A DNA stretch of 60,452 bases from an uncultured Mycoplasmatota bacterium. GTDB taxonomy: Bacteria > Bacillota_I > Bacilli_A > RF39 > UBA660. A program made the translations under genes and the position numbers. Within the stretch, counting starts at the first letter, position 1. Every line of letters begins with the position of its first letter. Of this stretch, positions 6,310 through 53,961 are shown piece by piece. The stretch is taken from positions 1 to 60,452 of the forward strand of contig CAMMOI010000002.1 of NCBI GenBank assembly GCA_946498375.1, read 5' to 3'. The notes under the pieces were generated by a model. The model was not told the origin of the DNA and ran no database searches. It worked only from the letters and a program-made list of their open reading frames with translations.

Positions 6310-8265
6310 ATGATGATTATGAAAAAGAGTAAATATTTTTATAATGGTATACCTTTATTTACATATTGTAAAGATAATAACATTAATTATAAGTCTATTC
6401 TAACAAGAATAAGTAAATTAAAAAAAGATGATAAATATATTAATTACCCGGAATCTGAAATTGTAGATAAAGTTATCGAAGCTTACGGAACAAATACAAA
6501 ATATTTTTACAAAGGAATGTCTTTAAGGCAATACTGTTTAAACAATAATATAGTTTTTGGCTCTGTTGAGAATCGGATCAATAGATTAAGGGCATATTAT
6601 CCTAAACTCACAGATAATGAGTTAGTTGTATTGGCGCTGGAGGTATATACTAATGGTCATTATAAACTATTTTATAAAGATGAACCTCTAATTGAGTATT
6701 GTCAAAAAAATCCTCATTTAAATTATGATACTATAAGATTACGCATTAGGCGAGAAAAACAGATAGAACCTAATATAACATCAACAGAAATAGATGAAAT
6801 AATTGAAAATTATATAGAAGAAGAACATAAAGGAATTTATACTTATTATTATTTGGGTATTCCATTAAAACAATATTGTGAAGAAAACAATATGAATTAT
6901 AACAGTGTTATGGCATTTATTTATAGATATAAAAACAAGTATAAAGATAGTAATTTATCAAATAATGAATTAGTTCAAAGAGCAATGGCCATTTATCATC
7001 CATATATTCCAAAATATCAATATAAGGGTATTCCCTTACAACAATTTTGTAATGAGCATAACATAAATGCTAGTTCTGTTAGGCATAAAATAGTAAAGGA
7101 GATATTAAAATCAAATAAATTATTACAAGAAATAGTTGATGAATGTGTAGAGCATTATTTAAATAGTCCACAAATTATACCAATAGAAACAAAATACTAT
7201 TTCAATAATCAAACTTTAACAAAATTTTGCGATTTTATGGGATATCCATATCTAGCAATTTGGAGACGAATTAAAAGATTAGAAGCTAAAGCTGAGTTAA
7301 TAAATAGTGAACAAATTATAGCCACAGCAATAAAAAAATATGAAGATAAATTACAAATAGATAAAATAAATGAAGCATTTAATAATTTAAGAAGTAAAAG
7401 AGTAAAAAATATTAATGAAATAGAAAATATATGTGATTTTTTAAAGATTAATTTTGAAAAAGTAAATTATTTAGTTAGCATGGATTTTTCATATAATCAA
7501 GCTATTAATTTAATATGGTATTTTTATGATGAACTAGCTTATAATGATTATAAGATTATTACTGATGAAAAATTAGAGTATTTATTATCTTTAGTAAATA
7601 AATTAGAACAAGCTAATGAATCAAATATTGTTGATTTTGAATTGTATGATCTAATAGGAATATATAAAAGTGAATTATATGATTCAAGAACTGAAATATT
7701 ATTAAGGCAAAAAAAATATATAAATAAAACATTATTTTCATTATGTACAAGCTATGAAGTTGAAATTAATAAAAATAATTATGAAGATTTTGAAAATGAA
7801 ATAAAATATTATTTACTAAAAGTAATAGAGCGTTCTAATTTAAATATCGTTGGGCAAATAGTTAAATATATGGATTTAACAGTTAAAGGATATTTTAGAG
7901 ATTATTTAAAAAAATATAAGAAATATAATAATAATTTATCACTTAATGACGCTAAATACGTTAATGATAAAAACACCAGTAAAGAAAAATCAAGAATAGA
8001 TTATATTGCTATTTCCAATAATCCATACGAAAAAATAGAACACACTTTATTTAGCTCTGATATGATGAGAGCACTATCTAATTTATCACAACAAGATTTA
8101 TTATTTATTGTATTAAAATTTCAAGAAAATTATAATGATGATGAATTAGCAGAATATTTTCATATAAGTATAGATGAACTTGAAAAAAAAGAAAATTTAA
8201 TACTATCTATATTAAAAAATAATGATAGTATTAAAGCAATAAAAAAGTTAAAGAAGGGAATTTAA
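6310..8265 (+). CDS. sigma-70-like protein with six N-terminal tandem HTH-like repeats
   Basis: Six units of [YF]Y.G.[PS]L..[YF]C..N.[IM]N[YF].[ST][IV]...R[IL]. The C-terminus has a region-4-like HTH (LSQQDLLFIVLKFQENYNDDELAEYFHISIDELEKKE) and a region-2-like segment (EDFENEIKYYLLKVIERS). The start codon is uncertain (GTG 6241, ATG 6310/6313/6319). Confidence 0.5.
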   Translation: MMIMKKSKYFYNGIPLFTYCKDNNINYKSILTRISKLKKDDKYINYPESEIVDKVIEAYGTNTKYFYKGMSLRQYCLNNNIVFGSVENRINRLRAYYPKLTDNELVVLALEVYTNGHYKLFYKDEPLIEYCQKNPHLNYDTIRLRIRREKQIEPNITSTEIDEIIENYIEEEHKGIYTYYYLGIPLKQYCEENNMNYNSVMAFIYRYKNKYKDSNLSNNELVQRAMAIYHPYIPKYQYKGIPLQQFCNEHNINASSVRHKIVKEILKSNKLLQEIVDECVEHYLNSPQIIPIETKYYFNNQTLTKFCDFMGYPYLAIWRRIKRLEAKAELINSEQIIATAIKKYEDKLQIDKINEAFNNLRSKRVKNINEIENICDFLKINFEKVNYLVSMDFSYNQAINLIWYFYDELAYNDYKIITDEKLEYLLSLVNKLEQANESNIVDFELYDLIGIYKSELYDSRTEILLRQKKYINKTLFSLCTSYEVEINKNNYEDFENEIKYYLLKVIERSNLNIVGQIVKYMDLTVKGYFRDYLKKYKKYNNNLSLNDAKYVNDKNTSKEKSRIDYIAISNNPYEKIEHTLFSSDMMRALSNLSQQDLLFIVLKFQENYNDDELAEYFHISIDELEKKENLILSILKNNDSIKAIKKLKKGI

Positions 8266-8271
8266 AATAAA

Positions 8272-8979
8272 TTATCCTTTTTTTATTAAATTTAAAAGGT
8301 ATTTATCATTATGGGCTTTATTAAAAGCTTTTAAATATGCGTTTTGAGTAATACCACAAGAATCCATTTTTTGTAATTCTTCAAAACTTAATTCGTTAAT
8401 TTTTGCTAATTTAAATAATTTTAATAAATTAGATATGTTTTTACCATCAAGTATTGTAAATCTTTCTTGTTCTAATAATTGTAAAATATATAAAGATTCG
8501 GGTAGTTGAATAATGTTTTTCATTCTATAATTTTTCCCGCTATTATCAAATCCTAAATAATTATAATCGTTATCAGATAAAAGAAAATATTTTATCATCT
8601 TTAAATATTGAATTTGAACTACATTTTTATCTGCTAATTGACCATTATAATATAAATTTAATAATATTTCATTATCTTTCTGGCACATATTATCAGTTTT
8701 TAAAACATGATATCGATGATATGCATTATCAATACTATTTTTTCTATCTTCATTATCTGCATATTCAGCTAAAAGTGTTTTGCTATTATGTGGAATTTTT
8801 GTATAGTTTTCAAAAAGTAATAACTCATTATATGGATCAACGTGTGTCTCTGCTAAAAATATTCTTTCGTTTTCTGGAATTGTTTTCATTTGTAATATTC
8901 GATAATTTATTAAATCATCTTTATTTGCATTAAATTCATAAACTTCAAAAGCTTTGTCTTTTTGGTCATATAAAAACAT
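8272..8979 (-). CDS. hypothetical protein
   Basis: Long ORF with a GGAGAAAATATAT-type RBS region upstream. No recognisable motif. Confidence 0.5.
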   Translation of the reverse strand: MFLYDQKDKAFEVYEFNANKDDLINYRILQMKTIPENERIFLAETHVDPYNELLLFENYTKIPHNSKTLLAEYADNEDRKNSIDNAYHRYHVLKTDNMCQKDNEILLNLYYNGQLADKNVVQIQYLKMIKYFLLSDNDYNYLGFDNSGKNYRMKNIIQLPESLYILQLLEQERFTILDGKNISNLLKLFKLAKINELSFEELQKMDSCGITQNAYLKAFNKAHNDKYLLNLIKKG

Positions 8980-9112
8980 ATATTTTCTCCTTTTCTATTA
9001 CTATTTTATCATAAATTTATTTAGTTTATTTTTTTATATTTAAAAAGTTTTAAGGTTTAAGCAAATAATATAAAGTTATGGTATAATATTTAATAAATAT
9101 GGAGGTTATAAA

Positions 9113-9919
9113 ATGAAATATGATGATCAATTTTTTAATTTAAGCACTGAGGCATATACTAAAGTAGAATTATCAGCTAATTGTGAAAATGAAGAGATTT
9201 TAAAAAAACAATCCCAATTACTTAAAATATTATTAAAAAGATTTCAAGCTGAATTAAAAAGTAAAAAGCTTAACAATTCAGGAATTTTAAAAGTTAAATT
9301 TCAAAATTCATTTTCACAAGAATCTGATTTAGGATATAATGAAATCGATGAATTAGTAAAAAGTAATAATTTTGATGCTTTTGCAAGCCAATATTGTTTT
9401 TATTTAAAAGATGTAGAATATAATTGCGATGAATCTTTGCCTGCTTATTATGAAATAATATGGGATTACAAGACTTATTTTGAACAATTAAGTATGCAAC
9501 AAATTAATATTACCAATCAATCAAATATAAGTAATAATGAATTTATAAAAGCTATAAATGACTTTCAACAATTACCTATTAAATATCAAATTGATATTTT
9601 AAAATCTTTTGTTCAAAGTGTTGAAAAAGGAAAAAATAGTAATGAACATGATATAGCAGTTAATACTTGTTTAAAAGAAGGACATCTATTTGACGAGTGG
9701 AAAACAAGAAGTTGGCCAACTAAAGAAGTATATTGGGATGCTGGTCCTCAAGAATATATTGATATCCATAAAACATGGTGGAGAACTTGTATGCGATGCG
9801 GTTATAAAGATGTATTTAATCATGAGCCACAAGAATTAATTGATGCAAGAAAAGCAAAATATAGAAAGTCAAGAATTAAGAAATTAGAAAGTGAACTAAA
9901 GAAGTTAAAGAATGAGTAA
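9113..9919 (+). CDS. hypothetical protein
   Basis: RBS TGGAGG lies 8 nt upstream of the ATG. C-terminal CMRCGYKD plus a basic coiled tail. No family recognised. Confidence 0.5.
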   Translation: MKYDDQFFNLSTEAYTKVELSANCENEEILKKQSQLLKILLKRFQAELKSKKLNNSGILKVKFQNSFSQESDLGYNEIDELVKSNNFDAFASQYCFYLKDVEYNCDESLPAYYEIIWDYKTYFEQLSMQQINITNQSNISNNEFIKAINDFQQLPIKYQIDILKSFVQSVEKGKNSNEHDIAVNTCLKEGHLFDEWKTRSWPTKEVYWDAGPQEYIDIHKTWWRTCMRCGYKDVFNHEPQELIDARKAKYRKSRIKKLESELKKLKNE

Positions 9920-9976
9920 ATTGTAGTTATTTAATTAAAATATAGTAACTAATACAAAAAATATACAAATTGTTGT

Positions 9977-10010
9977 AAAAAAAATAATTGAGCAGATCAA
10001 TTATTTTTTT
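9977..10010. terminator. bidirectional terminator overlapping the stop of 9997..10431
   Basis: AATAATTGA / TCAATTATT stem flanked by an A-run and a T-run. Confidence 0.5.
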
Positions 10011-10431
10011 TAGTAATATATAATTTACTTAACATAGAAATTATTAGAATTATGAGTTTCATAATGCCTAATATTATTAAATATAATATTAAAAATATGG
10101 GAACTAATATATATTCAAGACCACTAAACATTCCAGTTGTAGTTGGAAGCAAATTCCATATCCAAGATTTAGTAAAAAGTAAGTATGTAATTAATATTCC
10201 TACTGATATCCAAGATATTAGTGCATATACGTAAAATAAATGTTTATCTAAATTAATAGTTTTATATATTTTTTTGGAATATATAAAGTGGATAATTATA
10301 TATATAATTAGTATTAAAATTGGCAGAATAATTACATAATCACCATTTATACTTACAGAAAGGCCAAAGAATCCTAGAAAGATTAATTGCTTAAATAAGA
10401 CAATTAAAAATATTATAAAAAAATTCATCAA
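9997..10431 (-). CDS. small polytopic membrane protein
   Basis: Four or more hydrophobic segments. No family recognised. Confidence 0.45.
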   Translation of the reverse strand: MMNFFIIFLIVLFKQLIFLGFFGLSVSINGDYVIILPILILIIYIIIHFIYSKKIYKTINLDKHLFYVYALISWISVGILITYLLFTKSWIWNLLPTTTGMFSGLEYILVPIFLILYLIILGIMKLIILIISMLSKLYITKKNN

Positions 10432-10450
10432 TTATCACCATTATTCTAAT

Positions 10451-11617
10451 TTAATAAGTACTAGTTATTCCAAAGTAATCCTCCATTGTTAGCCAATTAC
10501 CATTATTATAAAGTTTAGTTGCTAAATCTATTCCAACATATCTAAAATGCCATGATTCATATTTATAGCCAGTCTCATTTGTTTTTCCCTCTGGGTATCT
10601 TAAAATAAAGCCATATTTATAGCAATTTTGAGCAAGCCATTGAGCTTGAGGTGTATTATCAAAATTGGAATTAATACAAGCATTTTTACCATCTAAATTG
10701 TGACTACAAACATCAAAAGCTAAACCAGATTGATGTTCTGAATGACCGGGTCTTGCTGAAAATGTATCAGCTTTATTAACACCATCTCTAGCAACATAAT
10801 TATTATATAATGTATTTTGTCTTTGGTATGATCTAAATCCACTAGATATATATAAATCAATTCCCTCTAATAAAGCTGCAGCTTGCATTTGGGCAAACGC
10901 CTCAGTAGTTTGAGAAGTTAGTGCGCTTCCGTAGTTAGAGGGTAGAGAATAAGTTTTGTTTACTATTAAATATCCATCAATATAAGTGACTCCATTTTTA
11001 ACAACGCCATTAAATCCTTTAGAAGTCGTAAATGTTGTTTCGTTATTTATATTATTTGCACTAGTATTTTGATTAGAAGTAGTATTTTTCTTTTCAGTCA
11101 CAGTTAAGGTAAATTCTTCTTTTGTTTCATTATTGCTTGAGTCTTTTGCTACATAATACAGTGTGTAACTACCAGCTTTATTAAAATCATATTCGCCTTC
11201 TATATTAACTTCTATATTTTCATTACTATTATCTTTTACAGTAACATCTTTTAATAAGTCAATCTCAGAACCTACTTCAGTTTCTAAATTTTTACTAAAC
11301 GTAATTTGAGGTTTTTCATCATCATAAATATTTACTTGAAAAAAGTAGTCCTTTTTTTGTCCCCAAAAATTTTTAATAATTATTTTTACTTTTTGGGTTC
11401 CAATTTTACTTGTATCAATTAATTCTTTATTGTTAATAACAGTACCATTTTTTAATTCTTTTAAATAATCAGTATTATATTTTTTGTCGTTTAAAGCAAT
11501 TTGTACATCATTTTCAATATTTACTTTTAATTTTTTAAAATTTATAAAAACTAATATTCCAATAATTACAATTAAAATTATTATACTTAATATAATGATT
11601 ATTTTCTTTTTTTTCAT
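10451..11617 (-). CDS. membrane-anchored VanY/LdcB-type M15B D-Ala-D-Ala (LD/DD) carboxypeptidase with an Ig-like domain
   Basis: N-terminal TM segment. Ig-like segment (ITFSKNLETEVGSEIDLLKDVTVKD ... YTLYYVAKDSSNNE). Zn-peptidase motifs SGFRSYQRQ, HSEHQSGLAFDV and ESWHFRYVG. The track start is TTG and I prefer the ATG at 11617. Confidence 0.8.
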   Translation of the reverse strand: MKKKKIIIILSIIILIVIIGILVFINFKKLKVNIENDVQIALNDKKYNTDYLKELKNGTVINNKELIDTSKIGTQKVKIIIKNFWGQKKDYFFQVNIYDDEKPQITFSKNLETEVGSEIDLLKDVTVKDNSNENIEVNIEGEYDFNKAGSYTLYYVAKDSSNNETKEEFTLTVTEKKNTTSNQNTSANNINNETTFTTSKGFNGVVKNGVTYIDGYLIVNKTYSLPSNYGSALTSQTTEAFAQMQAAALLEGIDLYISSGFRSYQRQNTLYNNYVARDGVNKADTFSARPGHSEHQSGLAFDVCSHNLDGKNACINSNFDNTPQAQWLAQNCYKYGFILRYPEGKTNETGYKYESWHFRYVGIDLATKLYNNGNWLTMEDYFGITSTY

Positions 11618-40576: not shown

Positions 40577-40616
40577 AAAAGTTCGAATAATTCGAACATA
40601 TTTCTAAAATGGTGCC
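40577..40616 (-). repeat. tRNA-Leu 3' end plus terminator hairpin; partner of the inverted copy at 189..227
   Basis: Includes hairpin GTTCGAA-tta-TTCGAAC followed by TTTT (read in the tRNA orientation), which acts as the tRNA terminator. Confidence 0.75.
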
Positions 40617-40696
40617 TGTGGTGGGAGTCGAACCCACACGATATTGCTATCACTGGATTTTGAGTCCAGCGCGTCTACCAATTCCGCCACACAGGC
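40610..40696 (-). tRNA. tRNA-Leu (anticodon CAA)
   Basis: Cloverleaf read by hand. Acceptor GCCTGTG/CACAGGC, anticodon arm CTGGA-CTCAAAA-TCCAG, long variable arm, T-arm GTGGG-TTCGACT-CCCAC, encoded CCA. Confidence 0.9.
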
Positions 40697-49565: not shown

Positions 49566-49617
49566 AAAGTGGCTAAAAATAGTTGAATAAAATATTTTAA
49601 TTTATTATAATAAAAGC

Positions 49618-49813
49618 AAGCGATGAAAAAAGAGTAGTAATATAATAATGCTTTATAAGAAAGCTAGTGGTTGATGTAAACTAGTAAGTAAAATTATATG
49701 AACTTGCTTTTGGATGTGATGGGCTAATCTCCCTTATAGATATCAAGGTAAGTAATACTTGCAAATTAAGGTGGTACCACGGCATTTCGTCCTTAGGAGA
49801 AATGTCTTTTTTT
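49618..49813 (+). promoter_or_regulatory. T-box leader with Leu (CUU) specifier and a terminator
   Basis: Stem I elements AGCGATGA, AGAGTAG, AGAAAG and GGTTGATGTAAA. Candidate specifier GAA-CTT-G at 49703-49705. T-box sequence AAATTAAGGTGGTACCACGG (49763-49782). Terminator CATTTCGTCC/GGAGAAATG followed by T7. Confidence 0.8.
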
Positions 49814-49836: not shown

Positions 49837-50220
49837 ATGATCTTTAATTTATGTTTCTTTGCTGGTATTTTTGTCATTGGATTTATAATATTTTATTTAA
49901 TAAATCTTAGAAGAGTTAAGAAAAAAAAGTTTAATAAAATTAAAGAGGCGAATTATTTAATTGGCAGATTTAAATTAGATAAGCAAAAGATTAATTATAA
50001 CAAGCTGATTATATTTATTAGTTTAGTAAATTCTTTTATAATAGCATTTGTATGTACAATTATTAGTATTATTCCTTTAGAGTTAATTTGGAAAATGTTA
50101 ATAGGATTTGTAATGCTGTTTATTATGATTTTTCTCATATATGAATTGATGGGGAAAATATGTTTAAAGAAAGGTTGGGGAAAAAATGCAGGAATTAAAT
50201 CACAAAAAAATAGAAAGTAA
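49837..50220 (+). CDS. small membrane protein (127 aa) between the T-box and leuS
   Basis: RBS AGGGTGA lies 6 nt upstream of the ATG. Three hydrophobic segments. Overlaps the leuS start by 35 nt. Confidence 0.55.
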
Positions 50221-53011
50221 ATGGCAAAAATATTGGGAAGAACATGAAACCTTTAAAACTGATGTTTGGGATTTTAGTAAACCAAAGTATTATGTTTTAG
50301 ATATGTTTCCTTATCCAAGTGGAGTAGGATTACATGCAGGGCATGTTTCAGGATATACTGCAACAGATATTATTTCACGTATGAAAAGAATGCAAGGGTT
50401 TAATGTATTACATCCAATGGGATATGATTCTTTTGGATTGCCTGCAGAACAATATGCTGTTACTACTGGTAATCATCCAGATGGATTTACAAAGAAAAAT
50501 GTTGAATATTTTACGCAGCAATTAAAGTCATTAGGTTTTGATTACGATTGGTCTAAAAAAATTCTTACTAGTGATCCCAAATTTTATAAATGGACACAAT
50601 GGATTTTTAAACAACTATATCTTGATGGATATGCTAAATATGTTGATATGCCAGTTAATTGGTGTGAAGAGTTAGGCACAGTTTTATCTAATGATGAGGT
50701 CATAGATGGCAAATCAGAAAGAGGGGGATATCCAGTAGTTCGCAAAAATATGAAACAACTTTGCATAGATCAGGTAGCTTTTGCAGAAAAATTATTAGAA
50801 GGATTAGATCACTTAGATTGGCCAGAATCTACTAAGGAAATTCAAAGAAATTGGATTGGAAAAAGTATAGGAGCTCATGTAACTTTTAAAGTGGCTGATT
50901 TTGATGAAGAATTTGTTGTTTTTACAACAAGATGTGATACTTTATTTGGGGCTACTTACTGTGTTTTATCTCCAGAACATAAATTAGTTGATAAAATAAC
51001 TAGCGAAGATAAAAAGCAAGAAGTAGCTGACTATAAAAAAATATGTGCCTCTAAAAGTGATTTAGAAAGAACAGAGTTAAATCATGAAAAAACAGGAGTG
51101 TTTATAGGAGCATACGCTATTAATCCTGTTAATAATAACAAAATTCCAATTTATATTAGTGATTATGTTTTAGCAAGTTATGGTACAGGAGCAATAATGG
51201 CAGTTCCTGCTCATGATACAAGAGATTATGAATTTGCTACTAAATTTAATATTCCAATTATTCAAGTTCTAGAAGAAGAAACGGGTATCAAACAGGAAAA
51301 TGAAACCAAAAAAGAATCTATAGTTGCTATTATTTATAATAAGAATAGTAATAAATATTTAACTCTTAATTGGAAACAAATGGGAGGACGTCTATTTATT
51401 GGAGGCACCAAAAATAATAATGAATCTTCTTTAGAATGCGCACTAAGAGAAATAAAAGAAGAAACAGGATATATAAATGTAAAATTTATTAAAGAGCTTC
51501 CAAGAATTAATCACCATTATTATGCTAAAAATAAAAATATTTATTTTAATACTGATGCTACGCCCTTGTATTTTGAATTAATTGATGAAAAACAAGTAAA
51601 ACAAAATTTAGATGCTGATGAAAGTTTTGAAATAGAATGGGTAGATGCACAAATTATTGAACAAGAAGTTGTGGATGAATTACATAAAAAGTCATATGAG
51701 TATACTTTAAATAGCGGAGCAATGATAGGTGATGGAATTCATATTAATAGTGAATTTTTAAATGGCCTTAATAAAAAAGATGCTATTAATAAAATGTTAG
51801 AATATTTGGAGCAAAATAACATTGGCCAAAAACATGTAAATTATAAATTTAGAGAATGGATATTTGCTCGTCAAAGATATTGGGGAGAACCTGTTCCAAT
51901 AGTTCATATGGAAGATAACACCGATTATGTTTTAGAAGACATTGAACTACCATTGGTTTTACCTAAATTAGAAGATTATCAAGCTCATAATGGCAAGGCG
52001 CCACTAGAAAATGCTACCGAGTGGAAAAATTATGTTTCTAAGGATGGTAAAAAGGGAATTAGAGAAACATCTACAATGCCAGGATCAGCTGGCTCTAGTT
52101 GGTATTATTTTAGATATATTGATCCTAATAATGATAATATGTTTTGTGATCCTAAGTTGGCTAAGCATTGGTTACCAGTAGATTTATATTTAGGTGGCCC
52201 AGAACATGCTGTAGGTCATTTAATATATTCCCGAATTTGGAATCGTTATTTATATGATAAAGGATTATCTTTTGTTAAAGAGCCATTTAAAAAATTAGTT
52301 CACCAAGGAATGATTTTAGGAGAAAATGGCATAAAAATGGGAAAAAGATATCCTGAATATGCTGTTGACCCTAAAGATATATGTGAAAAATATGGTGCAG
52401 ATACGCTAAGATTATATGAGATGTTTATGGGACCAATTGAGGCTAGTAAGCCATGGAGTTCCAAAGGAGTAGATGCAGCTCGTAAATTTATTGAACGAGT
52501 TTGGCGCTTTTTTACTAATAAAGAAAATATTTCTAATTCAGAGGTTAAGCAACTAGATAAAATTTATAATACAACTGTAAAAAAAGTTACTAATGATTTT
52601 GAATCATTAAATTTCAATACAGCTATTTCGCAAATGATGATTTTTGTTAACGAATGTTATAAAATAGGAACTTGTTCTTTAGAATACGCTCAAGGATTCA
52701 TTAAAATGATTAGTTGTATTATTCCACATACTGCTGAGGAAATATGGCAAATACTTGGTCACAATGAGACTATAGCCTATGAGTCATGGCCTAGTTATGA
52801 TGAATCTAAAATGGTTGATGAAAATGTAAACATTGCTATATCAGTAAATGGAAAATTACGAAATACAATAAAAGTTCCTTTAAATAGCGAAAAATCTTAT
52901 GTTGAAAAATTAGCATTAACTGATCAAAAGGTTAGTAAGCATTTAGAAAATAAAGAAATAGTAAAAATTATATTTGTACCAAATAAAATAATAAATATAG
53001 TAGTAAGGTGA
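50186..53011 (+). CDS. leuS: leucine--tRNA ligase with an inserted Nudix domain
   Basis: N-terminus [16 protein letters not shown]-type HAGH, CP1 editing domain and KMSKS-type KMGKR. About 150 extra codons (51272..51727) carry the Nudix box [23 protein letters not shown]. Confidence 0.9.
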
Positions 53012-53803: not shown

Positions 53804-53880
53804 TGGTAACCCGTACGGGTTTCGAACCCGTGAATACCACCTTGAGAGGGTGGCGTGTTAAGCCGCTTCACCAACGGGTC
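53804..53880 (-). tRNA. tRNA-Glu (anticodon CTC)
   Basis: Acceptor GACCCGT/ACGGGTT, anticodon arm CCACC-CTCTCAA-GGTGG, T-arm ACGGG-TTCGAAA-CCCGT, encoded CCA. Confidence 0.85.
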
Positions 53881-53885
53881 ATATT

Positions 53886-53961
53886 TGGCTGCCCCAGTTA
53901 GATTCGAACTAACGGAATGTCAGGTTCAGAGCCTGATGCCTTACCACTTGGCTATGGGGCA
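53886..53961 (-). tRNA. tRNA-Gln (anticodon CTG)
   Basis: Acceptor TGCCCCA/TGGGGCA, anticodon arm TCAGG-CTCTGAA-CCTGA, T-arm GTTAG-TTCGAAT-CTAAC, encoded CCA. Confidence 0.85.

Follow-up and report, generated by a model that had tools for sequence, protein, structure and literature searches.

A leucyl-tRNA synthetase with a Nudix hydrolase domain nested in its CP1 editing domain in uncultured gut Bacilli and the candidate phyla radiation

The window analysed here is a 60,452-nucleotide stretch of DNA from an uncultured Mycoplasmatota bacterium (assembly GCA_946498375.1, contig CAMMOI010000002.1, positions 1 to 60,452 of the forward strand). Its leuS gene (50186..53011), an open reading frame (ORF) of 941 aa on the forward strand, as are all leuS features given below, encodes a bacterial-type leucyl-tRNA synthetase (LeuRS) with a Nudix hydrolase domain nested inside its CP1 editing domain. 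This LeuRS-Nudix mosaic is fixed in a large clade of metagenome-assembled genomes (MAGs) of uncultured gut 'Bacilli' and is widespread in the candidate phyla radiation (CPR). On balance we think it probable, if not strongly so, that the insert works on its own as an active Nudix (di)nucleotide pyrophosphohydrolase, lodged in a CP1 loop, co-expressed with LeuRS and dispensable for both leucylation and editing.

The identity of the inserted domain is established. A linker and the Nudix domain together occupy aa 365-512 (51278..51721), on the evidence of Pfam, an AlphaFold2 (AF2) model and Foldseek. The Pfam NUDIX profile (PF00293; gathering score 21.1) matches aa 380-500 of the whole protein with 38.1 bits (E 1.9e-9) and the 152-aa insert interval alone with 42.9 bits (E 6e-11). 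The translation contains a Nudix box, G407-Y429 (51404..51472), which matches GX5EX7REUXEEXGU perfectly and includes the catalytic residues R421, E422, E425 and E426; G407, E413 and G428 are likewise present. An earlier note on this DNA had proposed a complete Nudix domain within LeuRS, and both the Pfam score and the perfect box bear this out; the flanks and insert that it quoted are the same in the translation of 51200..51790. AF2 assigns the insert a predicted local distance difference test (pLDDT) score of 82-93 within the full model, and of 87.6, with a predicted template-modelling (TM) score of 0.83, when it is folded alone. A Foldseek search of the PDB with the model returned 455 matches at E<=0.001; the 50 listed are all Nudix proteins with probability 1.00, the top TM score being 0.76. 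The insert is thus confidently predicted to adopt the alpha/beta/alpha sandwich of the Nudix fold.

The position of the domain is equally well established. In an alignment with Thermus thermophilus LeuRS (1h3n), aa 1-364 of the window enzyme pair with residues 1-364 and aa 516-712 with residues 380-579, so that about 150 residues take the place of a loop of about 15. The earlier note had set 941 aa against roughly 800 for a typical enzyme, and some 150 extra codons against about ten residues at this point; both comparisons hold, since close relatives that lack the insert are 798-800 aa long and have 6-10 residues there. Its placement of the insert inside LeuRS stands and can be refined: the insertion point lies within the CP1 editing domain, and PF13603 is split around it. 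CP1, which is itself an insertion in the Rossmann fold, covers residues 224-417 of the T. thermophilus enzyme. Three domains are nested here, each inside the next.

The host enzyme scores 969.7 bits against the bacterial LeuRS equivalog TIGR00396 (leuS_bact; cut-off 548.4), the match being broken into three stretches by the insert. Pfam recognises tRNA-synt_1, tRNA-synt_1g, tRNA-synt_1_2 (the LeuRS editing domain) and Anticodon_1 in addition to NUDIX, and AF2 models all 941 residues with a mean pLDDT of 81.3. The HIGH-type signature is HAGH (aa 50-53, 50333..50344), whose H50, G52 and H53 do not vary among 92 relatives, and the KMSKS-type loop is KMGKR (aa 717-721, 52334..52348), invariant from K717 to R721 in the same set. 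The N-terminal part of CP1 (aa 221-364, 50846..51277; PF13603 from aa 221) includes the threonine-rich region TTRCDT (aa 247-252, 50924..50941) and an AHDTRD segment with D344 and D347 (51215..51226). CP1 resumes after the insert with GDGIHINS... (aa 513-545, 51722..51820), which aligns with T. thermophilus LeuRS from residue 380. The second catalytic half follows, and then the anticodon-binding and C-terminal domains (51821..53008; Anticodon_1 at aa 793-904). T247, T248, R249, D251, T252, G333, G335, D344, R346 and D347 are invariant in the 92 relatives, and G517 and H519 are invariant among LeuRS relatives; the ten residues from T247 to D347 correspond to the known editing residues of the Escherichia coli and T. 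thermophilus enzymes, with equivalents of E. coli D342 and D345 among them. The synthetic and editing motifs of the enzyme are intact. The leucine-specific domain is absent, the alignment to 1h3n skipping T. thermophilus residues 580-652.

A scan in which each bacterial and archaeal species was represented by one genome returned 27 loci. Complete LeuRS of 935-942 aa with the same insert, at 57-67% identity, are encoded at 23 of these, and two more hold the same insert-bearing gene truncated by the contig end, which brings the number of genomes with the same in-frame insert to 25. Most are labelled 'uncultured Bacilli bacterium' and come from rabbit gut, with others from buffalo reticulum; one further locus, labelled Saccharibacteria, encodes a 964-aa LeuRS whose insert is 34% identical. 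A search with the full-length protein found more than 80 clusters at 90% identity that combine LeuRS with NUDIX. Those that bear a name are called just 'leucine--tRNA ligase', although the NUDIX domain already stands in precomputed Pfam tables. The earlier note had considered that the same insertion might be common and already annotated in characterised LeuRS families: common it is, in the gut Bacilli clade and the CPR, but none of the families concerned is characterised.

It is most improbable that the insert is an artefact or a selfish element, whether a mis-assembly, a chimera or an intein-like insertion removed before the enzyme functions. Such an origin could be argued from the GC content of the insert (0.24-0.25, slightly below the 0.29-0.33 of flanking leuS) and from the several different domains found inserted in related LeuRS. 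However, GC is continuous across the insert junctions, and mis-assembly, which the earlier note had raised, is excluded because the same in-frame insert recurs in 25 independent species-representative genomes and more than 80 clusters, in independent assemblies. An intein or mobile element was also rejected: NUDIX is the one family that Pfam detects there, Hint, intein and homing-endonuclease domains being absent, and no flanking or terminal repeats beyond chance were found at its ends. In the AF2 model, moreover, the inserted residues form an ordinary Nudix fold that is continuous with CP1, and the insert is under selection.

This selection can be seen among 111 unique insert-bearing LeuRS, whose mean pairwise identity is 60% in the insert, 75% in CP1 and 69% elsewhere. 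In the box, G..E..RE..EETG, conservation is at least 98% within this set, and in the wider family these residues hardly vary. For the closest pairs the insert has a dN/dS of 0.03-0.4, much like the remainder of the gene; the ratio is informative for these pairs only, most others being inflated by saturation. By these measures the insert is evidently under purifying selection and its catalytic residues are conserved.

The wider family was defined with a CP1+Nudix profile searched against 1.84 billion representative proteins, which gave at least 187 clusters at 50% identity (E<=1e-30), mostly CPR LeuRS. Named members belong to Candidatus Saccharimonadales, Paceibacterota and Moranbacteria; the Moranbacteria member (KKP58971.1, with a GW2011_... 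name) is presumably an early CPR-survey deposit of about 2015. A search with a separate profile of the Nudix domain by itself scored 1,047 word-matched candidates, returned mostly short proteins and is unusable for estimating the LeuRS-embedded fraction. Local hidden Markov model dissection of the best 150 of the 187 clusters distinguishes five architectures. The first, that of the window enzyme, is Ncat-CP1a-Nudix-CP1b-Ccat-Cterm in 940-1030 aa. The second has two or three Nudix domains, among them copies upstream of CP1 (P0132, P0133, P0137, P0147 and P0278) or, in a variant, in the second catalytic half (P0187 and P0223). The third has tandem type-B and type-A inserts in proteins of 1102-1105 aa (P0049, P0061 and P0070), where a duplicated CP1b-like segment, GAMTEDGVHINS, stands between the type-B and type-A Nudix domains. 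This tandem points to recombination, either of LeuRS genes with one another or with a free-standing cassette. In the fourth, found in CPR LeuRS, the Nudix domain is joined by other inserted domains: Ham1 (P0177), HAD (P0210) or a Ser_hydrolase alpha/beta-hydrolase (P0158, P0179 and P0233). The Ham1/RdgB inosine triphosphatase lies at aa 984-1167 of a 1330-aa Paceibacterota LeuRS (P0177/P0280), which takes its NCBI name from the Ham1 domain. The fifth comprises about 17 free-standing proteins of 273-354 aa in which a shortened CP1 carries the Nudix domain in the same loop (mini-CP1::Nudix).

The family signature is L.WKK..W...GG.E.GE....REi.EETGY...FyA.HK..NR. True stand-alone Nudix members of the family exist (P0287), but P0290 was rejected as a stand-alone type-A Nudix, since it belongs to a LeuRS that frameshifts have fragmented in a poor assembly and is no separate gene. 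At locus L033 (4456-6710) a LeuRS-Nudix gene lies in many small ORFs of a low-quality assembly. Such fragments pose as stand-alone Nudix or CP1 proteins in databases and put architecture counts at risk.

The state of the box across the family bears on whether the domain might be a non-catalytic nucleotide sensor or structural module, comparable to NrtR-type regulators or MutY C-terminal domains, that modulates LeuRS activity or interactions when a nucleotide ligand binds. We regard this as doubtful. It would account for a degenerate sub-type, GQT...A-x-EI.EETGY...FYHVPK, in which the arginine and first glutamate are lost; this box is found in the second copy of multi-Nudix LeuRS and in the sole copy of some Saccharimonadales and Moranbacteria LeuRS. 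A seat in the mobile CP1 domain could also permit allostery. Against a sensor, the strict box is kept in about 80% of family modules, and in the window type every catalytic residue is present and conserved at the level given above for the 111 sequences. Clean loss of the insert without compensating changes in LeuRS, described below, also speaks against integrated regulation.

The relatives of the Nudix domain differ with the method used. In a single-sequence comparison with the PDB the best matches are Dcp2 Nudix domains (E about 3e-6) and RppH is weak, whereas the family profile best matches the uncharacterised 2azw and 3smd, AvrM14 Nudix effectors, and the Aquifex and lupin diadenosine tetraphosphate (Ap4A) hydrolases. 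Foldseek ranks 2azw first (TM 0.76) and then many structures of E. coli RppH, including the Ap4A complex 7sp3 (TM about 0.66), followed by YmfB, NUDT15 and two Ap4A hydrolases, 4ijx and 3i7u, with identities of 14-22% throughout. From these comparisons the module probably forms a subfamily of its own, near the part of the Nudix superfamily that holds the RppH/NudH, Ap4A-hydrolase and decapping enzymes.

Two features of the domain bear more directly on the substrate. An aromatic pair, Y445-Y446 (51518..51523), lies 16-17 residues past the box at a putative X-loop specificity position; of 165 family modules, 151 and 150, respectively, have phenylalanine or tyrosine there (about 91%), and in a sequence alignment, as distinct from a superposition, the pair falls on HYWY of the Aquifex Ap4A hydrolase 3i7u. 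An X-loop tyrosine correlates with hydrolase activity towards diadenosine polyphosphates (ApnA), according to a 2017 survey of the Nudix clan (PMC5389931). The domain is also acidic, with a net charge of -9 and an isoelectric point of 5.0 (the family median charge is -5), and a small-molecule substrate therefore fits better than RNA. The suggestion in the earlier note that a built-in Nudix domain could clear Ap4A fits these data, RppH/NudH and Ap4A hydrolases being nearby and an aromatic pair standing at the putative X-loop position, and may be retained as a reasonable candidate class, though only as that.

The evolutionary dynamics of the insert are established and inform its relation to LeuRS. 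In a quick neighbour-joining distance tree built from non-insert columns, insert-less LeuRS of 799 aa are nested within the insert-bearing clade, and a separate 798-aa LeuRS sits beside the window's own branch. The insert therefore seems to have been cleanly and secondarily lost, with recombination as an alternative. That the 799-aa lineage moved its Nudix domain to a gene beside leuS was considered and rejected: this is not so at L031 or L032, and the arrangement is specific to locus L028. There, 7437-11268 holds a T-box, a 118-aa membrane-protein ORF, a 276-aa mini-CP1::Nudix protein (P0003) and an 806-aa LeuRS only about 45% identical to the clade's enzyme, with synteny to L031 kept. The Nudix domain of P0003 is 67-69% identical to embedded copies and is thus nested within their diversity. 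On the simplest reading, a foreign leuS displaced the resident gene at this locus and selection kept the Nudix-bearing CP1 fragment.

Mini-CP1::Nudix genes evidently arose repeatedly from LeuRS-embedded copies. A free-standing 287-aa member, P0172, is encoded at L035 (5001-5864) in the complete 0.87-Mb genome CP066684.1. Its Nudix domain is closest (63%) to a LeuRS-embedded copy and its mini-CP1 is of the bacterial LeuRS type, while its neighbours include fibrillarin, a SET-domain gene and topA; a bacterial-type gene in such surroundings suggests inter-domain transfer. CP066684 is cited as a Candidatus Aenigmarchaeota archaeon (DPANN) in one paper (PMC12993457). Another, P0140 (L038 2459-6438; also L039 and L040), is flanked by two CYTH genes, a nucleoside 2-deoxyribosyltransferase-like gene and a large multi-nucleotide-kinase gene, which could be a nucleotide-metabolism or nucleotide-based conflict cluster. 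The type-B P0008 (L029 1769-4182, and L030) adjoins a radical-SAM/SPASM enzyme, a 49-aa ORF and an S8 peptidase in a cluster resembling those for ribosomally synthesised and post-translationally modified peptides, with an IS200-type Y1 transposase upstream.

The CP1 part of these free-standing proteins has lost much of its editing site. Among 16 of them T252 is replaced by leucine in 13, T247/T248 are kept in two and D344 in one (otherwise N or I), and the GTG motif is lost. All 16 retain the structural positions P341, H343, A351 and G517, and 12 retain D347. With its editing residues so eroded, the mini-CP1 looks like a scaffold and not a deacylase.

On a different view, CP1 and Nudix form one functional unit whose target is the acceptor end of tRNA or a ligand of the aminoacyl-adenosine type. 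A76 or an aminoacyl-adenylate-like moiety would sit in the CP1 pocket, and the Nudix domain would cleave a pyrophosphate-containing lesion or toxin product; possible targets are a CCA end 3'-pyrophosphorylated by a toxic RelA/SpoT-type enzyme, a capped RNA end, or an aminoacyl-nucleotide antibiotic. We consider this unlikely, although several observations point towards it. The subfamily is nearly always found in CP1 or mini-CP1, and the roughly 17 free-standing clusters keep the four CP1 residues just named and mostly D347. In L028 the free-standing gene has stayed with leuS in the T-box operon, RNA-end Nudix proteins (Dcp2, RppH and AvrM14) are the closest characterised relatives in sequence or structure, and a HAD phosphatase also occurs in some LeuRS. 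Against these stand the erosion of the aminoacyl-A76 site in the free-standing forms and the acidity of the Nudix domain. In addition, other free-standing copies lie away from leuS amid nucleotide-metabolism genes, stand-alone Nudix members without CP1 exist, and the insert has been cleanly lost in nested lineages. A still more tentative form holds that CP1::Nudix is a composite catalytic unit rather than host plus passenger. CP1, or its degenerate mini-CP1 form, would hold the CCA end or an aminoacyl-adenosine-like ligand in place while the Nudix site removed a pyrophosphate-type block, such as one left on tRNA by toxic alarmone-synthetase homologues, and LeuRS and the free-standing proteins would thereby serve repair or immunity; it too we think improbable. 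On a broader version of it, LeuRS of minimal-genome symbionts (CPR, DPANN-associated and gut Bacilli) would be a dedicated scaffold tying Nudix, Ham1 and HAD sanitisers to translation capacity.

We therefore return to an autonomous Nudix hydrolase as the preferred reading. Independence of the Nudix activity from LeuRS catalysis is favoured by the clean losses, the free-standing escape, the nucleotide-metabolism neighbours and the Ham1 and HAD co-inserts. Hydrolase activity, the class of substrate and this independence are what we infer, and the proposal runs as follows. LeuRS would be fully functional, retaining both aminoacylation and post-transfer editing by CP1. The Nudix domain would work autonomously as a Mg2+-dependent hydrolase of small (di)nucleoside polyphosphates, its candidate substrates being Ap4A/ApnA side products of aminoacyl-adenylate chemistry and/or non-canonical nucleoside triphosphates (NTPs), and its role would be nucleotide 'house-cleaning' or salvage. 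The link to LeuRS would be mainly one of physical co-expression, as one polypeptide from a T-box(Leu) operon, close to the source of adenylate-derived by-products. Sanitation of non-canonical NTPs and hydrolysis of Ap4A/ApnA are equally plausible, the former because of the Ham1/HAD co-inserts and the nucleotide-metabolism neighbours.

Four points weigh against this proposal. First, homology gives no substrate class. Against the NCBIfam equivalogs the insert scores 28.6 bits for NudB (PRK09438), 27.9 for YtkD (TIGR02705), 26.3 for MutT (TIGR00586) and 19.1 for RppH (PRK00714), far below their cut-offs of 98-154, and its PDB relatives at 14-22% identity span RppH, Ap4A hydrolases, MutT-like proteins, NUDT15 and ADP-ribose pyrophosphatases; a substrate assigned by homology was accordingly rejected. 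Second, RNA may be the substrate after all, since Dcp2 domains are the best single-sequence matches and RppH is an RNA-end enzyme. Third, the subfamily sits overwhelmingly on a CP1 scaffold, even when free-standing and even in an archaeon, so CP1 may add to the function and be more than a historical passenger. Fourth, LeuRS is not, to our knowledge, among the strongest producers of Ap4A.

The leuS gene of the window lies in an operon with a T-box leader (49615..49797, forward strand; Rfam RF00230, 98.7 bits, the gathering score being 93), after which come a terminator-like hairpin and U-run on the same strand (end of the U-run near 49812). The specifier, read from the alignment as GAA-CUU-G, would be CUU (Leu), as we infer it. 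The first gene of the operon (49837..50220, forward strand) is a conserved ORF for a predicted small membrane protein of 127 aa that overlaps the leuS start by 35 nt. It has no Pfam match; homologues lie upstream of leuS in L028 and L031, and T-boxes are equally placed in both. The other neighbours of leuS in the window are ordinary (a GH31 glycosidase, a phosphoketolase and uppS), in a synteny common to L028 and L031. The window also has tRNA-Leu(CAA) at 40610-40696, and tRNA-Glu(CTC) and tRNA-Gln(CTG) at 53804-53961, just downstream of uppS on the minus strand.

Aminoacyl-tRNA synthetases (aaRSs) belong to the most conserved enzymes, and CP1 of LeuRS is a validated antibiotic target (of benzoxaboroles). 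A second, unrelated active site inside CP1, in whole gut and CPR clades, is a test of how much insertion CP1 tolerates, and offers a candidate physical link between aminoacyl-adenylate chemistry and the turnover of (di)nucleotides such as Ap4A. A connection between synthetases and Ap4A turnover has long been discussed and, as far as we know, has never been seen as a fusion. The series from embedded to duplicated (two or three copies), lost and escaped forms illustrates the passage of a nested domain into a protein family of its own, and LeuRS of minimal genomes emerges as a hot spot for housekeeping hydrolases (Nudix, Ham1, HAD and alpha/beta-hydrolase). Should the Nudix domain prove to do no more than ordinary house-cleaning, the interest would lie chiefly in evolution and structure. 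The earlier note knew of no described LeuRS-Nudix mosaic, and we likewise found no description of a LeuRS-Nudix or aaRS-Nudix fusion in the literature searched, paywalled papers being outside its scope. The 2017 Nudix-clan survey (PMC5389931) never mentions tRNA or synthetase. The enzyme is an undescribed case of a synthetase with an accessory enzymatic domain, and not a new category; the sequences are public and Pfam already lists their NUDIX domain.

Compared with bacterial LeuRS that have CP1 (T. thermophilus 1H3N/2BYT, E. coli 4AQ7 and the Streptococcus pneumoniae CP1 4K47), the window enzyme is collinear over its full length, scoring 651 bits to 1h3n. It shares with them the synthetic motifs, TTRxDT, GTG and D344/D347, and its gene, as in Firmicutes, is under T-box(Leu) control. 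Unlike the enzymes named, it has a Nudix domain of about 150 residues between T. thermophilus positions 364 and 380, a KMGKR loop and no leucine-specific domain. With RppH/NudH and the asymmetric Ap4A hydrolases (RppH 4S2X/7SP3, Aquifex 3I7U and human NUDT2 4IJX) the insert shares, in its model, the same fold (TM 0.60-0.76), and it has in common with them the canonical box and, going by sequence alignment, one or more aromatic residues at a putative X-loop position about 16-17 residues past it. It differs from these enzymes in being 14-22% identical, acidic and not basic, nested and not free, and in having its own signature. The best structural match to the insert is the uncharacterised Enterococcus faecalis Nudix protein 2AZW. 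Like AlaX, YbaK and ProX, the mini-CP1::Nudix genes are free-standing genes for editing domains; they differ in having lost the catalytic residues for editing, and are therefore not trans-editing factors of the AlaX/YbaK type. We know of no described free-standing family of LeuRS CP1. The window enzyme also resembles aaRSs with accessory enzymes, such as the fusion of IleRS with an N-acetyltransferase (NF040702), in joining an essential synthetase to an extra enzymatic domain, but whereas the accessory domain of such fusions stands at an end, the Nudix domain is nested inside CP1.

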